DNA from: Alphaproteobacteria bacterium
Lineage (GTDB): Bacteria > Pseudomonadota > Alphaproteobacteria > SP197
Direction: 5' to 3'
NCBI GenBank assembly: GCA_965228895.1
Contig: OZ245842.1
Location: 1,152,001-1,216,000 of the forward strand
Length of the DNA: 64,000 bases
Below are positions 6,397 to 16,285 of this stretch, one piece after another. Every line of letters begins with the position of its first letter. The first letter of the stretch is position 1. The translations under genes and the position numbers were made by a program. The notes below the pieces were generated by a model, which was not told the DNA's origin, made no database searches, and worked only from the letters and a program-made list of their open reading frames with translations.

Positions 6397-8150
6397 GCGA
6401 TCACGTGCACACCGATCGTCAGTGGTATGGCGGTGCCATGGAACCGCAGCCGACGCTGCGCCTTGAGGGTGCCATCAAACAGGCGGCCGACGTCTGCCGC
6501 TCGCGCCTGGTCGTTCTGACTGTGGTCTTTTGCGCCGCGTTCCTGCTGATCGCCGGCCGTCTGGTCGAGGTCATGTTGATCGAGGCGGGCGACAGCGACG
6601 CGCTTGCCTACAGTACGGCGCTGGCGCCGATTGGCCGCGCCGACATCGTCGATCGCAACGGCATTTTGCTGGCGACCGACCTGCCGACCGCGTCGCTCTA
6701 TGCCAACCCGCGTGACGTGATCGATGCGGAAGAAGCGGCGGTGATGCTGGAATCGGCGTTGCCGGAACTGGACTTCGATGATGTCGTTCGCAAGCTATCG
6801 ACCGACCGTGGCTTTGTCTGGTTGAAGCGTAACCTGACGCCGCGTCAGCAAGCCGACATCCACAGCCTCGGTATCCCGGGCCTGGGTTTTGTGCGCGAGG
6901 AGCGGCGGATCTATCCGCAAGGTCACCTTGCCGCTCATGTCGTCGGATTTACCGATATCGACCGCCACGGTTTGGCTGGCGCCGAACAGGCCTTCGACCA
7001 TGAACTTCAGGCGCGCGCGGAAGCCGATGAAACACCGTTGGCGTTGTCGCTGGATCTTCGTTTCCAGCAGATCGTGCGTGAGGAGCTGACCGCCACGATC
7101 GAGCGCTTCGACGCCATCGGCGGTACCGGCATCGTCCTGGACGTGCACACCGGTGAAGTCCTCGCCATGGTTTCCTTGCCCGACTTCGACGGCAATCGTG
7201 CCGGCGAGGCCGATGGCGACACGCGTTTCAACCGGGCGACCCTCGGCGTCTATGAGGTCGGTTCGGTCTTCAAGGTCTTCACCGCCGCCATGGCGCTTGA
7301 CGCTGGTCTTGTGAACATGACCAGCGGCTACGACGCGACCGATCCGATCCGCATCTCGCAATTCACGATCCGCGACTACAAGCCGAAGAACCGCTGGCTG
7401 TCACTGCCTGAGATCCTGATCTATTCGTCGAACATCGGCGCGGCGAAGATGGCGCTTGATGTCGGTGCCGAAGGTCAGCAGGCATTCTTGCAGCGCATCG
7501 GTCTCTTGTCGGCGTCGCAGCTTGAGCTGCCGGAAAATGCCATGCCGATGGCGCCGGCGCCGTGGCGCGAGATCAACACGATGACCATCGGGTTTGGCCA
7601 CGGCATCGCCGTGACGCCGATCCAGGTCGCGAGCGCGATGGCCGCCATGGTCAATGGCGGCACGCTCTATCAGCCGACCATTCTGCGCTGGGCCTCCGAT
7701 CAGTCGCCGCCGGGTGTGCAGGTGATTCAGCCCGAGACGTCGGATGCCGTGCGCATGCTGATGCATCTGGTCGTCGAGTACGGTAGCGGCCGCAAGGCGC
7801 AGGTCGACGGTTACATGATCGGCGGCAAGACCGGCACGGCCGAGAAACTGGATAGCTGGGGCGGCTACAACGAGGACAAGCTGTTGTCGTCGTTCGTTTC
7901 CGCGTTCCCGATCGATGATCCCCGCTTCATCGTTCTGGCGATGATCGATGAGCCCAACGGCATCGAAGAGACCTACGGCTATGCGACCGGCGGCTGGACT
8001 GCGGCGCCGACGGTCGGAAACATCATTGCGCGCATCGGCCCCTTGGCCGGTATCGCGCCGGACGAAGACGCCATGCCTGACTTGCCTCGGGCCGTGGCCG
8101 GACAGGATCTGGAACTGGAGGCCATCCTTGCGGCTTACGGCGCTCATTAA
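6393..8150 (+). CDS. ftsI: Peptidoglycan D,D-transpeptidase FtsI (PBP3)
   Basis: RADIVDRNG, YEVGSVFK (SxxK), YSSN (SxN), GKTGTAEK. Confidence 0.96.
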   Translation: MSDHVHTDRQWYGGAMEPQPTLRLEGAIKQAADVCRSRLVVLTVVFCAAFLLIAGRLVEVMLIEAGDSDALAYSTALAPIGRADIVDRNGILLATDLPTASLYANPRDVIDAEEAAVMLESALPELDFDDVVRKLSTDRGFVWLKRNLTPRQQADIHSLGIPGLGFVREERRIYPQGHLAAHVVGFTDIDRHGLAGAEQAFDHELQARAEADETPLALSLDLRFQQIVREELTATIERFDAIGGTGIVLDVHTGEVLAMVSLPDFDGNRAGEADGDTRFNRATLGVYEVGSVFKVFTAAMALDAGLVNMTSGYDATDPIRISQFTIRDYKPKNRWLSLPEILIYSSNIGAAKMALDVGAEGQQAFLQRIGLLSASQLELPENAMPMAPAPWREINTMTIGFGHGIAVTPIQVASAMAAMVNGGTLYQPTILRWASDQSPPGVQVIQPETSDAVRMLMHLVVEYGSGRKAQVDGYMIGGKTGTAEKLDSWGGYNEDKLLSSFVSAFPIDDPRFIVLAMIDEPNGIEETYGYATGGWTAAPTVGNIIARIGPLAGIAPDEDAMPDLPRAVAGQDLELEAILAAYGAH

Positions 8151-9597
8151 CGGACTCGACCTGACGGTCGAGCGCTGTGGCGGGGATGTCGACATCCTCG
8201 GCCTGAGCGCGGACTCGCGCGACTGCGGGCGTGACTACCTGTTCGCCGCCGTGCCGGGCGTCGAGACCGATGGTCGCGGCTTCATCGACGACGCGGTGGC
8301 GCGTGGCGCGGCGTGTGTGCTGACAACGACGGATGCCGCGGCCAAGGCGGCGAAGCATGACGTCGCGGTACTGACCAGCGATCGGCCGCGCCGTGTGTTG
8401 GCGCAACTGGCTGCCCGTTTTTTCGGCGACCAGCCGGAACGCGCTGTCGCCGTGACCGGGACGAACGGAAAAACATCGGTCGCCGTTTTCTGTGCGCAGT
8501 TGTGGCGCGCACTCGGTATCAAGGCGGCAGCCATTGGTACCTTGGGCGTTTGCGGTAACGGTTATCGCGCCAGCCTTGCGCACACGACGCCGGACCCGGT
8601 TACCTTGCACAAGGTGCTGGCCGACCTTGGCGTGCGCGACTTCAAGCGCGTCGCGCTTGAAGCGTCGAGCCACGGTCTCGATCAAAACCGTGTCGATGGC
8701 GTGCGCCTTTCCGGTGCCGGCTTCACCAACCTGACCCAGGATCACTACGACTATCATCCGAGCCTGGAGGCGTATCGCGACGCCAAGTTCGGCCTGTTCG
8801 GACTGGTCGAGACCGGTGGTGTGGCGGCACTGAACGCCGACAGCGATCAGTTCGACGCCTTGGCCGGTCTTTGCCGCGACAACGGCTTGCACGTTGTCGG
8901 CTATGGCCGTGCTGGCAAAGACCTGCGGCTTGTCGACAGCCGCTACCGCGGTCCGGTTCAGATCCTGACGATCGAGGCGGACGGTGAGCGCATCGACACG
9001 GAATTGCCGCTGCCCGGACACTTCCAGGCCATGAACGCCTTGTGTGCTGCGGCCATGGTCGCAGGTGTCGAAGGCATTGAGGTCGCACGGGTGCTGGAAC
9101 TGCTGCCGTCGCTGACCGGCGTGCGCGGACGCCTGGAGCGTGTCGCGGAACATCCCGATGGCGGCCCGATCTATGTCGACTATGCGCATACGCCGGATGC
9201 CCTGCAGACGGTGCTGGCAGAGGTGCGTCCGGCGGTGACCGGCAAGCTGTTTGTCGTCTTTGGCTGCGGCGGTGACCGCGACCGCGACAAGCGCGCACGC
9301 ATGGGCGCAATCGCCGCGCGCCTTGCCGACAAGGTGTTTGTCACCGACGACAACCCGCGCACCGAAGAAGCCGCTGACATCCGTCAGGAGATCATGGCGG
9401 GCTGCCCCGACGCGACCAATGTCGGCGGTCGGGCCGAAGCGATCCGCGCGGCGATCGGCGCGATGAGCGATGGCGATGTTTTGGTCGTCGCCGGTAAAGG
9501 TCACGAGCAGGGTCAGATCGTCGGCAAGCAGGTTCTGCCGTTTGACGATGGCGACGAAGTGCGTCGCGCGGTCGACGAGCTGGGACGCGCGGCATGA
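8128..9597 (+). CDS. murE: UDP-MurNAc-tripeptide synthetase
   Basis: TTG start after GGAGG; VTGTNGKTS, HTTPD, EASSHGLDQNR, DYAHTPDAL, DNPR (meso-DAP type), AGKGHE. Confidence 0.96.
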   Translation: MRLTALINGLDLTVERCGGDVDILGLSADSRDCGRDYLFAAVPGVETDGRGFIDDAVARGAACVLTTTDAAAKAAKHDVAVLTSDRPRRVLAQLAARFFGDQPERAVAVTGTNGKTSVAVFCAQLWRALGIKAAAIGTLGVCGNGYRASLAHTTPDPVTLHKVLADLGVRDFKRVALEASSHGLDQNRVDGVRLSGAGFTNLTQDHYDYHPSLEAYRDAKFGLFGLVETGGVAALNADSDQFDALAGLCRDNGLHVVGYGRAGKDLRLVDSRYRGPVQILTIEADGERIDTELPLPGHFQAMNALCAAAMVAGVEGIEVARVLELLPSLTGVRGRLERVAEHPDGGPIYVDYAHTPDALQTVLAEVRPAVTGKLFVVFGCGGDRDRDKRARMGAIAARLADKVFVTDDNPRTEEAADIRQEIMAGCPDATNVGGRAEAIRAAIGAMSDGDVLVVAGKGHEQGQIVGKQVLPFDDGDEVRRAVDELGRAA

Positions 9598-11015
9598 CCG
9601 GCCCGGTGCTTTGGAACGATCGCGATGCGGCGGCGGCGACCGGCGGCGAGAGCCTGCAGCCGTGGTCGGCGTTCGGTGTCGCGTTCGACAGCCGGCAGAT
9701 CGCCCCGGGTGATCTCTTTGTCGCGCTCAAGGGTGAGACATCGGACGGCCATAACTATATCGGCCAGGCATTTGATGGCGGTGCGGCGGCCGCAATGGTG
9801 GCGCGCTCGTTCGACCACGACGAGCCGGCGCCACTGCTGCTGGTGCCTGACACGATGGCCGGTCTGAACGATTTGGCGCGCGCCGCCCGTGCGCGTTGCA
9901 AGGGCCGGATTTGCGCGGTGACCGGCAGCGTTGGTAAGACCGGCACGAAAGAAATGCTCCACCACGTGCTGGCGCCCCAAGGCGCAACCCATGTCAGCGA
10001 GAAGAGCTTCAACAATCATGTGGGAACGCCGCTCAGCCTGGCGCGTATGCCGGCGTCGACACGTTTTGGCGTTTTTGAGATTGGTATGAATGCACCAGGT
10101 GAGATCGCGCCGCTGGCCGGTCTGGTGCAGCCGAACATCGCCGTGATTACCGCAGTCGAGCTGGTCCATGGCGCGACCTTTGACGGTATCGACGGCATTG
10201 CCGCGGAGAAGGCTGACATCTTCACGGGTGTGGCCGATAACGCTATCGCCGTCATCAACGGCGACAGCACGTTTGCCGACTATTTGACACAGCGTGCTCG
10301 CGACGGCGGTGCAGCGCGTGTCGTGCGGTTCGGTGAGACGGACGGCTGCGATGTTCGGTTGCTGGATTGGCGGCTGGACGACGTGGGCACCGCGGTCAAG
10401 GCGGACGTCTTCGGCCGAGCGGTGAACTTCCATCTGGGAACGTGGGGCCGTCATCAGGCGCTCAACAGCCTCGCCGTGCTGGCCGTTGTCTCGCTGATGG
10501 ATGCCGATGTCGAAGAAGCTGCTGCGGCACTGAGCACGGTAACGCCGCCGACCGGAAGGGGCCAGCGCCATCGTATTGCGACCGATGGCGGCGACGTTCT
10601 CGTCATCGATGAGTCGTATAACTGCAGCCCCGCTGCGCTGCACGCCGCGCTGCGCGTCTTGCACGCGACGCCGGTTGGCGAGGGTGGTCGGCGTATAGCC
10701 GTGATCGGCGATATGCTGGAGTTGGGCGAGCGGAGTGCCGAAACGCACAAGGCGCTGGCTGAGCACATTGTCGATAACGACGTCGATTTTGTCATCCTGA
10801 TTGGTGACGAGGTCGCGCATACCAAACATGCCCTGCCTGCGAAGCGCTGTGCGGCTCACGTCGCTACGGCGAGTGATGCTATCGCGCCGGTTCTCGATGC
10901 GCTGCAGGCAGGCGACGTGGTGATGGTCAAGGGGTCGAGGCGCGTGGGTCTTGAAGCCGTTGTCGAAGAGCTGGTGCGGCATGGCGCCGTCCAGCCCATG
11001 GTCGGCAACGGCTGA
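9594..11015 (+). CDS. murF: UDP-MurNAc-pentapeptide synthetase
   Basis: VTGSVGKTGTKE, SFNNHVGTP, FEIGMN, DESYN, GDMLELG, VMVKGSR. Confidence 0.96.
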   Translation: MTGPVLWNDRDAAAATGGESLQPWSAFGVAFDSRQIAPGDLFVALKGETSDGHNYIGQAFDGGAAAAMVARSFDHDEPAPLLLVPDTMAGLNDLARAARARCKGRICAVTGSVGKTGTKEMLHHVLAPQGATHVSEKSFNNHVGTPLSLARMPASTRFGVFEIGMNAPGEIAPLAGLVQPNIAVITAVELVHGATFDGIDGIAAEKADIFTGVADNAIAVINGDSTFADYLTQRARDGGAARVVRFGETDGCDVRLLDWRLDDVGTAVKADVFGRAVNFHLGTWGRHQALNSLAVLAVVSLMDADVEEAAAALSTVTPPTGRGQRHRIATDGGDVLVIDESYNCSPAALHAALRVLHATPVGEGGRRIAVIGDMLELGERSAETHKALAEHIVDNDVDFVILIGDEVAHTKHALPAKRCAAHVATASDAIAPVLDALQAGDVVMVKGSRRVGLEAVVEELVRHGAVQPMVGNG

Positions 11016-11027
11016 GGGGGACGAGCG

Positions 11028-12116
11028 ATGCTGTTTAATCTCCTGTCGCCTCTGTCCGAAGATATTGGTGCGCTCCGGTTGTTCTCGTTCATTACGTTCC
11101 GGACCGGCGGCGCGATCCTGACGGCGCTTTTGATCAGCCTGATCTTTGGCCCGCTGGTGATCCGGTGGCTGAAGTCGGTTCAGGGTAAGGGTCAACCGAT
11201 CCGCAGCGACGGACCGGAGAGCCACATCATTACCAAGGCCGGCACGCCGACCATGGGCGGTGTCCTGATCCTGCTGTCACTGGGCGTCGCGACGCTGCTC
11301 TGGGCCGACCTGTCGAACGGCTTCGTTTGGATCGTCCTGCTGCTGACGCTTGGCTTTGGCGCCATCGGTTTTGCCGACGACTATCTGAAGGTCACCCATC
11401 AGACCAGCAAGGGTCTGTCGGGTTACGTTAAGCTGGCGATGGAAATCGTGCTGGCATTGGTCGCAGCGTTCGCCATCGCCGCGTTGACCGAAAGCCATCT
11501 GTCGTCGCATCTGGCTATGCCGTTCCTGAAAGACGTCCTGGTTAATTTCGGCTGGTTTTTCTTGGTCGTCGTTGTCTTTGTCATCGTCGGCGCATCAAAC
11601 GCCGTCAACTTGACCGATGGGCTGGACGGTCTGGCGATTGGCCCGATCATCATTGCGGCGATGACGTTCGGTATCATCTGCTATCTCGCCGGTAACACGG
11701 TTTATGCGTCCTACCTGCAGCTTCCGTTGGTCGTTGGCGCCGGTGAATTGGCTGTGCTGTGTGGCGCGCTGGTTGGCGCTGGGCTCGGCTTCCTGTGGTT
11801 CAACGCACCGCCTGCCATGGTGTTCATGGGCGACACCGGCAGCCTTGCCAGCGGGGCCGCGCTGGGCAGCATCTCCGTCGTGACCAAGCACGAGCTGGTG
11901 CTGGCGATCGTCGGCGGTCTTTTCGTTCTTGAGACGGTCTCGGTGATTGTCCAGGTCGTCTCGTTCAAGGTCACCGGCCGCCGTGTCTTCCGTATGGCCC
12001 CGATCCATCACCACTTCGAAAAAATGGGCTGGGCTGAACCGACAATCGTGATCCGGTTCTGGATCATCGCCATTGTGCTGGCGCTTGTCGGTCTTGCCAC
12101 CCTGAAGTTGAGGTGA
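11028..12116 (+). CDS. mraY: Phospho-MurNAc-pentapeptide transferase
   Basis: [44 protein letters not shown]. Confidence 0.98.
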
Positions 12117-12120
12117 GCCG

Positions 12121-14031
12121 ATGATCGATCTTTCACGCCACGCAGAGTCATCGATCGCGGTCTTCGGGCTGGGACGTTCCGGCGTTTCGAGTTCCCTTGC
12201 GCTGGCCGCGGCCGGCGCACAGGTCCATGCCTGGGACGATGATCCCGCGCGGCGCCGTCTGGCCGCCGACAAGGGCGTCACGCTCAATGACCTCTATCGT
12301 CTGGAGTGGGACATCGTGCGCGCGCTCGTTCTGAGCCCCGGCGTGCCGCTGACCCATCCGGCACCACATCCGCTGGTCGCCCGCGCGATGGCGGCCGGTG
12401 TCGAAGTGATCGGCGACATGGAGCTGTTTGCCCGCTCGCGTCCGCCGGGTCGCGTCGTCGGCGTTACCGGCACCAACGGCAAGTCGACGACGTCGGCGTT
12501 GATTGCCCACCTGATCCGCGCGTCCGGCCGCTCGGTGCAACTGGGCGGCAACATCGGTACGCCGGTCCTGGACCTCGACCCGCTGGACGAAGACGGCATC
12601 TATGTTCTCGAGCTGTCGTCTTATCAGCTCGATCTGATTCGCTCGCTGGTCAGCGATGTCGCGGTCCTGTTGAATTTGTCGCCCGATCACGTCGAACGCC
12701 ATGGCGATTTCGCCAACTATATCGCAGCGAAAACGCGCATCTTCTCGCGCCGGGCATCCCATCAGACATCGGTCATCGGCGTTGATGACGACATCTGCCG
12801 GCGCATTCACGCCGAGCTCGCGGGCCGGCGCGGCCGCACCATCATTCCGGTGTCGGTACTGCGCCGTGTCGCCGACGGTGTCTATGTCAAGAAGGGCGTT
12901 GTGATCGACGAGACGTCAGGTAAACCGGACGAGGTCGTCGACCTCAGCAAGGTCAAGGTGCTGCCCGGCGTGCACAACTGGCAAAACGCCGCGGCCGCAC
13001 TTGCCGCTATTCGTGCGCTTGGTATTCCCGCCGACGAAGTGGCGAAGGCATTCAAGACATTCCCCGGCCTGGCGCACCGCCAGGAAGTCGTGTGCAAGGT
13101 CGGCCGGGTTACCTTTATCAACGACAGCAAGGCGACCAACGCGGCCGCGGCCGCGCGCGGCCTTGCCTGTTACGACCGTATCTACTGGATTGCCGGTGGA
13201 CGCGCCAAGGAGGGCGGCATTGCGACGCTCTCTCCGTACTTCCCACGGATGGCTCACGCCTTCCTGATCGGGGAGTCCGCCGGCGCATTCGCCCAGACAT
13301 TAGAAGGACGCGTGCCGTACTCCGTAAGCGGCGATCTTGCGACAGCCGTCAAGCAGGCTAGCGATATGGCGCTGGCTGACCGACGTGCCGGCGCGATCGT
13401 TTTGCTGTCACCGGCATGCGCGTCTTTCGATCAGTTCTCCGATTTTGAAGATCGGGGGAACAAGTTCCGTGAAATCGTGCTCGCAGAAAAGAGAAAGCGC
13501 GATCAGGAACTTGAGAAGGACACATCTCTTGTCCCACCCGCAACACGCAAAAGGGGGTCTGACATGGCCACGAAACGTTCTTCGGCCAAGAAGTCAACTG
13601 CCAAAAAGAAAGCTGCCAAACGCAAGGCTCCGGCCAAGCGCAAGGCCGCGACCAAGAAGAAAGCCGTCAAGCGCAAAGCGCCGGCGAAACGTAAGGCTGC
13701 GACCAAGCGTAAGGCTCCGGCCAAGCGCAAAGCCGCAACCAAGAAGAAAGCCGCCAAGCGTAAGGCTCCAGCCAAGCGCAAAGCAGCGACCAGGAAGAAA
13801 GCCGCCAAGCGTAAGGCTCCGGCCAAGCGTAAAGCAGCCAAGCGGAAGACGGCTAAGCGTAAGGCTCCGGCCAAGCGCAAAGCGGCCAAGCGCAAGGCTC
13901 CAGCCAAGCGTAAGGCAGCGAAGAAAAAAACCGCCAAGCGCAAGGCTCCGGCCAAACGCAAGGCAGCCAAGCGCAAGGCTCCGGCCCGGCGTAAGGCTCC
14001 AGCCAAGAGGAAGACCGCTAGGAAGAGATGA
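12121..14031 (+). CDS. murD: MurD (UDP-MurNAc-L-Ala:D-Glu ligase) read in frame into a C-terminal histone H1-like basic repeat
   Basis: FGLGRSG, LSPGVP, TGTNGKSTT, ELSSYQL, NDSKATN, LLSPACASFDQF; no in-frame stop until 14031. Confidence 0.93.
   Translation: MIDLSRHAESSIAVFGLGRSGVSSSLALAAAGAQVHAWDDDPARRRLAADKGVTLNDLYRLEWDIVRALVLSPGVPLTHPAPHPLVARAMAAGVEVIGDMELFARSRPPGRVVGVTGTNGKSTTSALIAHLIRASGRSVQLGGNIGTPVLDLDPLDEDGIYVLELSSYQLDLIRSLVSDVAVLLNLSPDHVERHGDFANYIAAKTRIFSRRASHQTSVIGVDDDICRRIHAELAGRRGRTIIPVSVLRRVADGVYVKKGVVIDETSGKPDEVVDLSKVKVLPGVHNWQNAAAALAAIRALGIPADEVAKAFKTFPGLAHRQEVVCKVGRVTFINDSKATNAAAAARGLACYDRIYWIAGGRAKEGGIATLSPYFPRMAHAFLIGESAGAFAQTLEGRVPYSVSGDLATAVKQASDMALADRRAGAIVLLSPACASFDQFSDFEDRGNKFREIVLAEKRKRDQELEKDTSLVPPATRKRGSDMATKRSSAKKSTAKKKAAKRKAPAKRKAATKKKAVKRKAPAKRKAATKRKAPAKRKAATKKKAAKRKAPAKRKAATRKKAAKRKAPAKRKAAKRKTAKRKAPAKRKAAKRKAPAKRKAAKKKTAKRKAPAKRKAAKRKAPARRKAPAKRKTARKR
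13564..14031 (+). CDS. Histone H1-like Lys/Arg/Ala/Pro-rich protein (155 aa), in frame with murD, with its own initiation site
   Basis: AAGGGGG RBS then ATG at 13564 (MATKRSSAKK...); ten RKAPA units; no acidic residue; stop overlaps ftsW ATG. Confidence 0.7.
   Translation: MATKRSSAKKSTAKKKAAKRKAPAKRKAATKKKAVKRKAPAKRKAATKRKAPAKRKAATKKKAAKRKAPAKRKAATRKKAAKRKAPAKRKAAKRKTAKRKAPAKRKAAKRKAPAKRKAAKKKTAKRKAPAKRKAAKRKAPARRKAPAKRKTARKR
13610..14025 (+). repeat. Degenerate coding tandem repeat (AAGCG(C/T)AAGGCTCCGGCCAAGCG(C/T)AA core)
   Basis: Repeated KRKAPAKRKAA(T/KKK) units with synonymous third-position variation. Confidence 0.9.
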
Positions 14032-15152
14032 CAACTTTCGCCCGCACGGACCGCAGCTTACTAGGAAGATGGTGGTGGACCGTCGACCGGTGGACGCTGG
14101 CCGCGCTCGTGATCCTGATGCTCTGCGGAGTCATCTTGATCATGGCGGCCAGTCCGCCGGTCGCGGACCGCATTGGTGCGGACTCGTTCTATTTCGTGCG
14201 GCGACAGTTCATCTTTTTACCGATTGCACTGGCCGTGTTGATGGCCGTTTCCCTGCTATCGCCGCAGGGCGTGCGTCGGCTTGCTGTTACTGTATTCGGA
14301 ATCTCGGTCGTGCTTTTGGTGCTGACCCTCTTCATTGGGGCCGACATCAAGGGTTCACGTCGTTGGATTGCTTTGCCGGGATTCTCATTGCAGGCGTCGG
14401 AGTTCGTAAAGCCGGCTTTTGCCGTCGTTGTCGCCTGGATGTTTGCCGAACAGCGTACCCGCCCGGGATTTCCGGGCGACCTTGTAGCTCTTTGCCTGTT
14501 CATCTTGGTTGTCAGTCTTATCGTGCTGCAACCCGACTTTGGCATGGCCGCCACGGTTACGGCGATCTGGGGCGGCCTATTTTTCCTCGCCGGCATGCCG
14601 CTCATCTTGGTAGCCGGCGTGGCGGGGGTCGTCGTGGTCGGGCTGATAGCCGGCTACACCTTCCTGCCGCATGTCGCGGATCGGATCGATCGCTTTCTCG
14701 ATCCGACATCCGGTGACAGTTTTCAGGTGAACACGGCATTGAGAGCGTTTGAATCCGGAGGAGTCTTTGGACGGGGGCCGGGCGAAGGCGTCGTTAAGGA
14801 CGTCCTGCCCGATGCCCATTCGGACTTTATCTTCGCCGTCGCCGGCGAGGAGTTTGGTCTGCTCGTCTGTTTGCTGATTGTCGCGTTGTTCGCCTTCGTC
14901 GCATTACGCGGATTGATCCGCTTGATGTCGGAGAAGGATCTTTTTGTCTTGTTGGCTGTCGCCGGACTGCTGATTCAGTTCGGGGCCCAGGCGGTGGTCA
15001 ACATGGGCGTTACGCTGCGTCTGGTGCCGTCGACCGGGATGACGCTGCCGTTCATGTCCTATGGCGGGTCGTCGCTGGTGGCGATTGCCATCGCCATGGG
15101 CATGGTGCTGGCGCTGACACGGCGCCGGCCCGAACACGGGAGGCCGTCATGA
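14028..15152 (+). CDS. ftsW: Peptidoglycan polymerase FtsW
   Basis: WWWTVDRW, GSRRWI, QASEFVKP, QPDFG, LPDAHSDFIFAV, GMTLPFMSYGGSS. Confidence 0.97.
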   Translation: MTTFARTDRSLLGRWWWTVDRWTLAALVILMLCGVILIMAASPPVADRIGADSFYFVRRQFIFLPIALAVLMAVSLLSPQGVRRLAVTVFGISVVLLVLTLFIGADIKGSRRWIALPGFSLQASEFVKPAFAVVVAWMFAEQRTRPGFPGDLVALCLFILVVSLIVLQPDFGMAATVTAIWGGLFFLAGMPLILVAGVAGVVVVGLIAGYTFLPHVADRIDRFLDPTSGDSFQVNTALRAFESGGVFGRGPGEGVVKDVLPDAHSDFIFAVAGEEFGLLVCLLIVALFAFVALRGLIRLMSEKDLFVLLAVAGLLIQFGAQAVVNMGVTLRLVPSTGMTLPFMSYGGSSLVAIAIAMGMVLALTRRRPEHGRPS

Positions 15153-16285
15153 CCGGCCCCGTGATGCTGGCAGCTGGCGGAACGGGCGGACATTTGTTCC
15201 CCGCCCGCGCGCTAGCCAGTGTGCTGCTTGACCGTGGCCGCGACGTGGTCTTTGTAACCGATCGTCGCGGTGTCAACCTCGGCGCTGGTCTGGAAGGTGT
15301 GCCGGTCCACACCGTGCGTTCGGCCGCCATGGCCGGGCGCAAGCTGACCGGCCGAGTCACCGGCGTGGTTGACCTGCTGCGTGGTACCTGGGAAGCGCGG
15401 CGTCTGACCAAGAGCCTCGGCGCATCCTGTGTCGTCGGTTTTGGTGGCTATCCATCAGTGCCGCCGGTGCTTGCTGCGACCCGGTTGGCGTTGCCCACGG
15501 TCATTCACGAACAGAACGCGGTGCTGGGACGGGCCAATCGCCTCCTGGCACCCCGTGTCGATGTGATTGCAACGTCGTTCCTCGATACGGCGCGGCTTGA
15601 TGTGTCGGGCCACGCACGTGTGGCGCTGACCGGCAATCCCGTGCGTCCGGAAATCACCGCGCTGGCTAACCAGCCCTACGTACCGCCAAACGGCGACGGT
15701 CGGTTGCGTGTCCTCATTGTCGGCGGCAGCCAGGGCGCCAGCATCCTGAGCCGCGTGCTGCCTGAAGCGCTTGCCACCATGCCGTCCGGCGCGCGTCGTC
15801 TTCTGGTCATCACCCAGCAGTGCCGGCCGGAAGACCTGGATGGCGTACGTGCGGCCTATGAGACGCTGGGCGTGCAGGCGACGCTGAAGAGTTTCTTTGA
15901 CGATATGGCTGATCGCCTGGGCGAAGCCCAACTGGTCATCGGGCGCGCCGGCGCGTCGACGGTCGCCGAGATCGCCGCGGCCGGTAAGCCTGCGATTCTG
16001 GTTCCCTATCGTTATGCTGCCGATGACCATCAGACCGTAAACGCCATGGCGGTTGAGGCTGATGGCGCGGGGTGGTTGATGCCTGAGCAGGCGTTTACCG
16101 CCGAAGCCCTGGCTGCGCGTTTGGAAGCGTTGACGGCGACGCCGCAGACGCTTCAGGCGGCCGCCGAGAGCGCGCGCCAGCGTGCCCGCCTTGATGCCGC
16201 ATCGGCATTGGCCGATGTGGTCGAGCGACTGGTGCCCGGCAATGGTGACAGCCACGACGCTTTGATGCGTCCGGAGGCCGCATGA
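15149..16285 (+). CDS. murG: Lipid II GlcNAc transferase
   Basis: [48 protein letters not shown]. Confidence 0.97.

Follow-up and report, generated by a model that had tools for sequence, protein, structure and literature searches.

A polycationic extension of MurD with a conserved internal start signal, a candidate source of a second protein upstream of ftsW

Classic cases of in-frame internal initiation are IF2, ClpB and CheA, and lysine repeats are carried by HupB and by the TopA of Streptomyces. We describe here a gene that combines a lysine-rich repeat with a putative internal start: the murD gene of an alphaproteobacterium (GTDB lineage SP197, assembly GCA_965228895.1), lying in a stretch of 64,000 nucleotides (contig OZ245842.1, positions 1,152,001 to 1,216,000, forward strand) that we call the window and from whose first letter all positions are counted. 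In bacteria, in-frame internal starts giving C-terminal proteoforms have been mapped genome-wide by retapamulin ribosome profiling (Ribo-seq) (10.1101/520783). Described Lys-rich sequences include AlgP of Pseudomonas, an H1-like protein rich in Lys, Ala and Pro (PMC9239181), and the PAKKA tail on the Ku protein of M. smegmatis (PMC3553676). In our murD gene, the ligase is followed by a long polycationic tail whose first codon is an ATG with a strong Shine-Dalgarno (SD) sequence of its own. The best single reading of this arrangement, to which we give a probability of about 0.5, is that a second, free product of 17 kDa would be made from the internal start. The elements concerned are the following.

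12121..14031, + strand: murD open reading frame (ORF), 636 codons and TGA, a single open frame leading from ligase to tail without a stop
13551..13557, + strand: SD-like AAGGGGG, with a GGGG core kept unchanged by all 9 non-redundant tailed relatives
13558..13563, + strand: spacer TCTGAC between the SD and the ATG
13564..13566, + strand: internal in-frame ATG (Met482), 6 nucleotides after the SD, first codon of the tail
13564..14031, + strand: nested frame, translated as a polycationic Lys/Ala/Arg/Pro repeat tail of 155 amino acids, and the shared TGA

The string AAGGGGG-TCTGAC-ATG occupies positions 13551-13566, in frame with the murD ORF, exactly as the original prediction had it, and its spacing falls within the 5-9 nucleotides over which an SD may serve an in-frame internal start. 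The low-complexity block was likewise said to begin at this ATG, and the 155-codon stretch does open there, the block itself being the tandem repeat array described below. We took the anti-SD from the 3' end of the 16S RNA (three copies in the genome) and obtained the energy of its duplex with the stretch from -20 to -3 ahead of each start codon. For the internal site the value is -11.2 kcal/mol, a strength attained by 0.14% of the 15,155 in-frame internal ATGs found in 2,439 long ORFs of the source genome. It exceeds the authentic starts of murD (-9.9 kcal/mol), mraY (-10.3), murG (-10.3) and murC (-9.5), while those of murF and ftsW stand at -3.9 and -4.2 kcal/mol. Such a pair of SD and ATG goes beyond chance expectation. 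The SD is spelled with rare codons, AGG making up 3.9% of the codons for Arg, GGG 8.9% of those for Gly and AAA 25.6% of those for Lys. Tig, TopA and L21, which carry Lys-rich tails in the source genome, show no comparable SD and start at the tail boundary, the best value there being -5.9.

The start signal is retained wherever the tail is found. Among the eleven tailed genomes of the family, including the source genome, an SD with a GGGG core stands 6-8 nucleotides before the start in every case, and the start is ATG in ten and GTG in one (G012), this ATG to GTG change being the only start-codon substitution among tailed relatives. The SD energies are -11.2 kcal/mol in two genomes, -10.0 in three, -9.9 in one, -7.5 in four and -7.4 in one. 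A metagenome contig (L120) has the same SD and start string as the window. Conservation of the ribosome binding site and ATG in relatives had been named beforehand as the test by which the internal start could fall; with the signal kept in 11 of 11 tailed genomes and in L120, the proposal came through it.

Is this conservation imposed by the protein sequence? We compared positions -30 to +15 in a non-redundant set of nine tailed sequences, from which L002 and L004 were dropped as near-copies. The only contiguous invariant block is GGGG (-12 to -9), to which the TG of the start codon can be added. The residues coded by the SD vary (K, E or L, then R or G) while the nucleotides are kept, the spacer codons vary as well (SD, TV, ID, AD, KA, ST, KD), and the SDs of the relatives use the rare codons AGG, GGG and GGA throughout. 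The SD and start are kept at the DNA level over three genera while the surrounding linker diverges. As a control within the gene, the five conserved Met columns of MurD have mean SD energies of -8.7 kcal/mol at the junction versus -5.0, -3.4, -2.8 and +0.8 at the others. Over 494 ungapped columns, an SD of -7.4 or stronger occurs in every species at two places only, the junction and, immediately past the invariant MurD motif AKEGG, a second site whose SD-like string codes for that motif. On these comparisons the SD and start appear to be conserved beyond what the protein sequence requires, with the caveat that the tail was gained only once.

At the AKEGG site the string, AAGGAGGG (window positions 13220-13240), is kept in all nine tailed relatives with energies no weaker than -7.7 kcal/mol, and no start codon follows it.

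The fusion that contains this site is almost certainly real: because no stop separates the ligase domain from the tail, it can be read directly from the DNA. The murD ORF scores 358.3 bits against the NCBIfam model TIGR01087 (murD; cut-off 211.95), which makes its product a MurD, and Pfam finds Mur_ligase_M (95.6 bits) and MurD-like_N in it. Fusions are uninterrupted in all eleven tailed genomes and in six database proteins. The internal Met lies 46 residues beyond the FDQF..RG motif in ten of the eleven tailed genomes and 42 beyond it in the other. Between and beyond the elements listed above, the gene is built as follows.

12154..13482, + strand: complete MurD ligase domain, amino acids 12-454, covering positions 2-440 of the 441 of the TIGR01087 profile
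13486..13563, + strand: linker of about 27 amino acids (456-481), poorly conserved in sequence among relatives
13601..14020, + strand: tandem repeat array coding for AKRKAPAKRKAA-type units, with periods of 15 to 87 nucleotides and a length that differs between strains and species

A count over 154 translated residues gives 57 K, 49 A and 24 R for the tail (MATKRSSAKKSTAKKK...TARKR, 155 codons from Met482). The tail is 53% Lys+Arg and about 32% Ala, has an isoelectric point (pI) of about 12 and a mass of about 17 kDa, and consists of repeat from residue ~12 through its end. The original prediction called it H1-like. As to composition (Lys, Ala, Arg, Pro) the name can stand; as to family it cannot, since the tail has no Pfam match at E<=0.01 and scores 12.2 bits, below the cut-off of 80, against NF038053 (histone H1-like DNA-binding protein). 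Nor is it a eukaryotic linker histone H1: with no Pfam domain, it lacks the winged-helix globular domain and resembles only the C-terminal tail of H1. 'H1-like' is a resemblance of composition only. A precomputed match to PF07382 (Hc2) exists for the fusions of two relatives (P0004 and P0005), and an Atlas look-up returned as nearest clusters free-standing bacterial proteins of 98-129 amino acids, compositional look-alikes that serve as a lead only. Within the genome, a paralogue search found the tail itself as its sole match, and a search of all six frames for ORFs rich in Lys (25% K or more in 50 amino acids) found no free H1-like ORF.

The repeat array grows and shrinks and yet the frame is kept. 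Between close strains the difference is one of entire repeat units (636, 632 and 630 amino acids), an approximately 95%-like relative (public run X9) has an in-frame deletion of 18 nucleotides in the repeat at window position 13984, and all length differences are in frame. Three further ORFs that overlap the repeat were considered as genes and set aside. One on the + strand in another frame (13337..14716) is open only because the repeat has no stop codons, two antisense ORFs (13503..14006 and 13594..14034, - strand) are stop-free only through repetitiveness, and none of the three is likely to be a gene.

Repeats of this kind are also found elsewhere. Nearly identical AKRKAPAKRKAA-like repeats are attached to unrelated proteins (P0121-P0124), one of which has PF11268 and another an S1 domain (PF00575); the module is promiscuous. 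In the source genome (G000), outside the window, Lys/Ala/Pro-rich C-terminal tails are present on the trigger factor Tig (2175634-2177316, +), topoisomerase I TopA (2035739-2038444, -) and ribosomal protein L21 (874057-874614, -), and a Lys-rich N-terminal tail on a penicillin-binding protein (PBP)-like membrane protein (4771843-4773933, +), all four names being taken from the translations. Such polycationic tails seem to be habitual throughout the lineage.

On MurD itself, the tail has a narrow distribution. The murD gene was present in 31 of the 31 genomes searched, and for 24 genomes belonging to the window's family we inspected how MurD ends. A Lys/Ala/Pro repeat tail was found in eleven of them (G000, G002, G003, G007, G010, G005, G012, G014, G031, G032 and G036), measuring 28 to about 200 residues where its end is assembled; in five relatives the short-read contigs (L003, L004, L005, L032 and L033) end inside the murD repeat. 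Two genomes (G015 and G009) have short Lys-containing MurD ends without repeats, and in the other family genomes read MurD ends 30-55 residues past the FDQF..RG motif. For six more family genomes, judged by their 512-amino-acid open frames and match extents, MurD looks like the tail-less type. The tail was absent from all 12 genomes of other families and from all 60 motif-bearing loci of a genome-contig scan (80 loci, 20 of them without the motif; the relatives returned were at most 60% identical and did not include the close family). A metagenome scan gave one tailed locus (L120, 91% identical) among 62 motif-bearing loci, 18 of its 80 loci being without the motif, and in a search of 5.8 billion proteins the tailed MurDs among the 120 listed matches were P0001-P0006 only. 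Four short matches taken up as possible split or stand-alone tails proved to be unrelated proteins with similar repeats. In a MurD tree of 26 rows, which left out family genomes without a locus and most outgroups, one gain is enough for the 11 tailed rows (support 73/76). The tail is, as the tree has it, one ancestral character of a small clade, gained once.

The frame of the tail ends on the start of the next gene, as follows.

14020..14027, + strand: purine-rich AGGAAGAG before the ftsW start, a weak SD of -4.2 kcal/mol
14028..15152, + strand: ftsW, 374 amino acids, Pfam FTSW_RODA_SPOVE, whose ATG overlaps the murD TGA as ATGA (14028-14031)

The final codons of murD, GCT AGG AAG AGA TGA (14017-14031), include both AGGAAGAG and the ftsW ATG (14028-14030), in agreement with the prediction that a purine-rich ribosome binding site and the ftsW start would be found there. 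The ftsW start is firm because its frame has many stops just upstream. Around this junction the ORFs follow in the order murE, murF, mraY, murD, ftsW, murG, murC, murB, ddl, which places murD between mraY and ftsW, its position in the division and cell wall (dcw) cluster; the name ftsW is backed by Pfam and the remaining names come from our reading of the translations. The murE ORF (7948-9597, +) has an Arg/Pro-rich N-terminal portion of ~60-70 residues ahead of the usual MurE sequence, and its true start is probably further downstream.

Translational coupling of the tail to ftsW had also been proposed. The stop and start do overlap, as in a coupled pair, but this is the ordinary state of the class: ATGA is found in 21 of the 26 loci where the ftsW start could be placed, tail-less ones included, one further locus overlaps by 4 nucleotides, and four are spaced. 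Three of the four spaced loci belong to tailed relatives (G014, G005 and G032), which have a gap of 23 nucleotides and an ftsW SD of their own (-6.9 to -8.6); L120 also has ATGA. Coupling therefore seems to be inherited, neither specific to the tail nor conserved with it. The ftsW SD of the source genome (-4.2) is the weakest among the family's loci, which makes it plausible that ftsW translation depends on upstream ribosomes in this genome. In tail-less relatives, the ftsW signal (GGGGGA, 7-8 nucleotides before ATGA) resembles the internal site, and one may speculate that the internal site descended from this ancestral ftsW signal.

Ribosomes starting at 12121 make the 636-residue fusion of ligase, variable linker and tail. 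We propose that the strong, conserved SD and start at the tail's first codon most likely recruit ribosomes internally as well, giving a free protein of 155 amino acids and pI 12. Both products would stop at the TGA that overlaps the ftsW ATG, and from this geometry ribosomes from either start could feed ftsW by termination-reinitiation. Free or fused, the tail would be expected to bind polyanions, for example DNA, RNA, polyphosphate or acidic lipids of the membrane, to judge by its charge and by the Lys-rich tails already known. It is tempting to go further and see the free polycation as a division-linked organiser of nucleoid, polyphosphate or membrane, with its own SD, coupled to FtsW and started by a captured ancestral ftsW SD and start codon. 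This fuller picture, as a whole, we regard as unlikely.

Several observations weigh against a free product. As the AKEGG site demonstrates, constraint on the protein is enough to conserve an SD-like string, and the eleven genomes, which share one gain of the tail, count as one retained character and not as independent events. G012 keeps its SD and GTG ahead of a tail of only 28 amino acids, unlikely to be a functional protein. Local mRNA folding at the site (-14.0) is only mildly open versus the gene mean of -18.6 (standard deviation 5.2), at the 80th percentile, and real starts stand at -9.0 and -9.3. No sigma-70-like promoter was found in 11000-15300 (0.7 expected), a scan that alphaproteobacterial promoters may escape. 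In its choice of codons the tail departs from ribosomal-protein and tuf genes (AAA 28% versus 12%, GCT 27% versus 7%) and gives no sign of high expression; its usage differs from that of the MurD core too, and the idea that the tail is translated more than the body gains no support from it. Of five public runs labelled as RNA (4-10% of words), two (X1 and X3) yielded nothing beyond short metatranscriptome contigs that match the Lys-rich repeat; these have many loose ends, probably come from other organisms and are uninformative as to start, strand or level. Finally, in no relative or database protein examined does the tail occur as a separate gene.

In a first alternative the tail is solely a MurD extension, with no meaningful internal initiation, the G-x-x-M and the purine-rich codons being due to protein-level or chance constraint or to the slow decay of an ancestral feature. 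A frame open in all tailed genomes, a nearly constant linker length and a tail that arose once speak for this, as do the Tig, TopA, L21 and PBP-like proteins of the source genome, where similar tails exist purely as fusions, and AKEGG, whose motif keeps its SD-like string. The codon usage of the tail and the failure to find a stand-alone form point the same way. We consider this explanation possible, though less likely than a second product. Against it, at the junction the SD-coded residues change and the bases do not, rare codons are used throughout, the sole change of start codon is to another start codon, and an SD this strong is exceptional before an internal ATG and stands at no other conserved Met of the gene. 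Internal initiation might also be real and yet be selected as a means of delivering ribosomes to the ftsW start by termination-reinitiation, the peptide being a by-product. The retention of SD and GTG in G012, where only 28 codons remain before ftsW, would then make sense, and so would the weak ftsW SD of the source genome, the ATGA overlap (in the source genome, G002, G012 and L120) and the similar ftsW signal of tail-less relatives. However, G014, G005 and G032 are tailed and have a spacer and an ftsW SD of their own, murD ribosomes already couple in every relative, and a repeat of 155-240 codons is a costly spacer. We find this role improbable. An artefact, either a misassembled repeat or two genes joined where a sequencing error removed a stop, might be suspected from the five short-read assemblies that break inside the repeat. 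It is very improbable, with the window's genome in one contig, a contig from another run (which may be of the same source) spanning the stretch with 3 differences and no gaps, length differences that all respect the frame, and eleven genomes, six database proteins and one metagenome contig all reading through.

Should ribosomes use the internal start, a highly charged small protein would be hidden by gene callers inside an essential cell-wall gene, and the cell would link ftsW, a division gene, with a polycation that binds nucleoid, polyphosphate or membrane. Even without a second product, a MurD ligase with a polycationic tail of 155-240 amino acids appears to be undescribed: our literature search found no paper on a MurD with a Lys-rich tail, a weak absence as 'murd' also matches unrelated words. 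The MurD tail, seen alongside those of Tig, TopA, L21 and the PBP-like protein, suggests that this lineage widely places cytoplasmic enzymes by such tails, and the murD case offers a clean test of whether Lys-rich tails double as stand-alone proteins.

How does the locus compare with described systems? Like the genes known for internal-initiation proteoforms, murD has an in-frame internal start with its own SD, and the predicted short product is the C-terminal module. It differs in that the case is drawn from sequence and conservation only, the module is a low-complexity polycation instead of a folded domain, and the host gene is murD. With AlgP, the Ku PAKKA tail and the Chlamydia Hc2 protein (Pfam PF07382), the murD tail shares composition and repeat style (AKKAP / AKRKAP). 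It falls below the thresholds of the H1-like families and, as on the other tailed proteins of its genome, is a module appended to a housekeeping protein. The ATGA coupling of murD and ftsW in the dcw cluster is present here as in most loci, with an upstream frame that is longer by about 180 codons. A parallel in architecture is that of fused Mur ligases, which NCBIfam names bifunctional MurE/MurF (NF008896) and bifunctional MurC/Ddl (NF011171). There too fusion lengthens a Mur ligase gene of the dcw cluster, but the partner is a second enzyme, whereas in the murD described here it is a non-enzymatic polycation.

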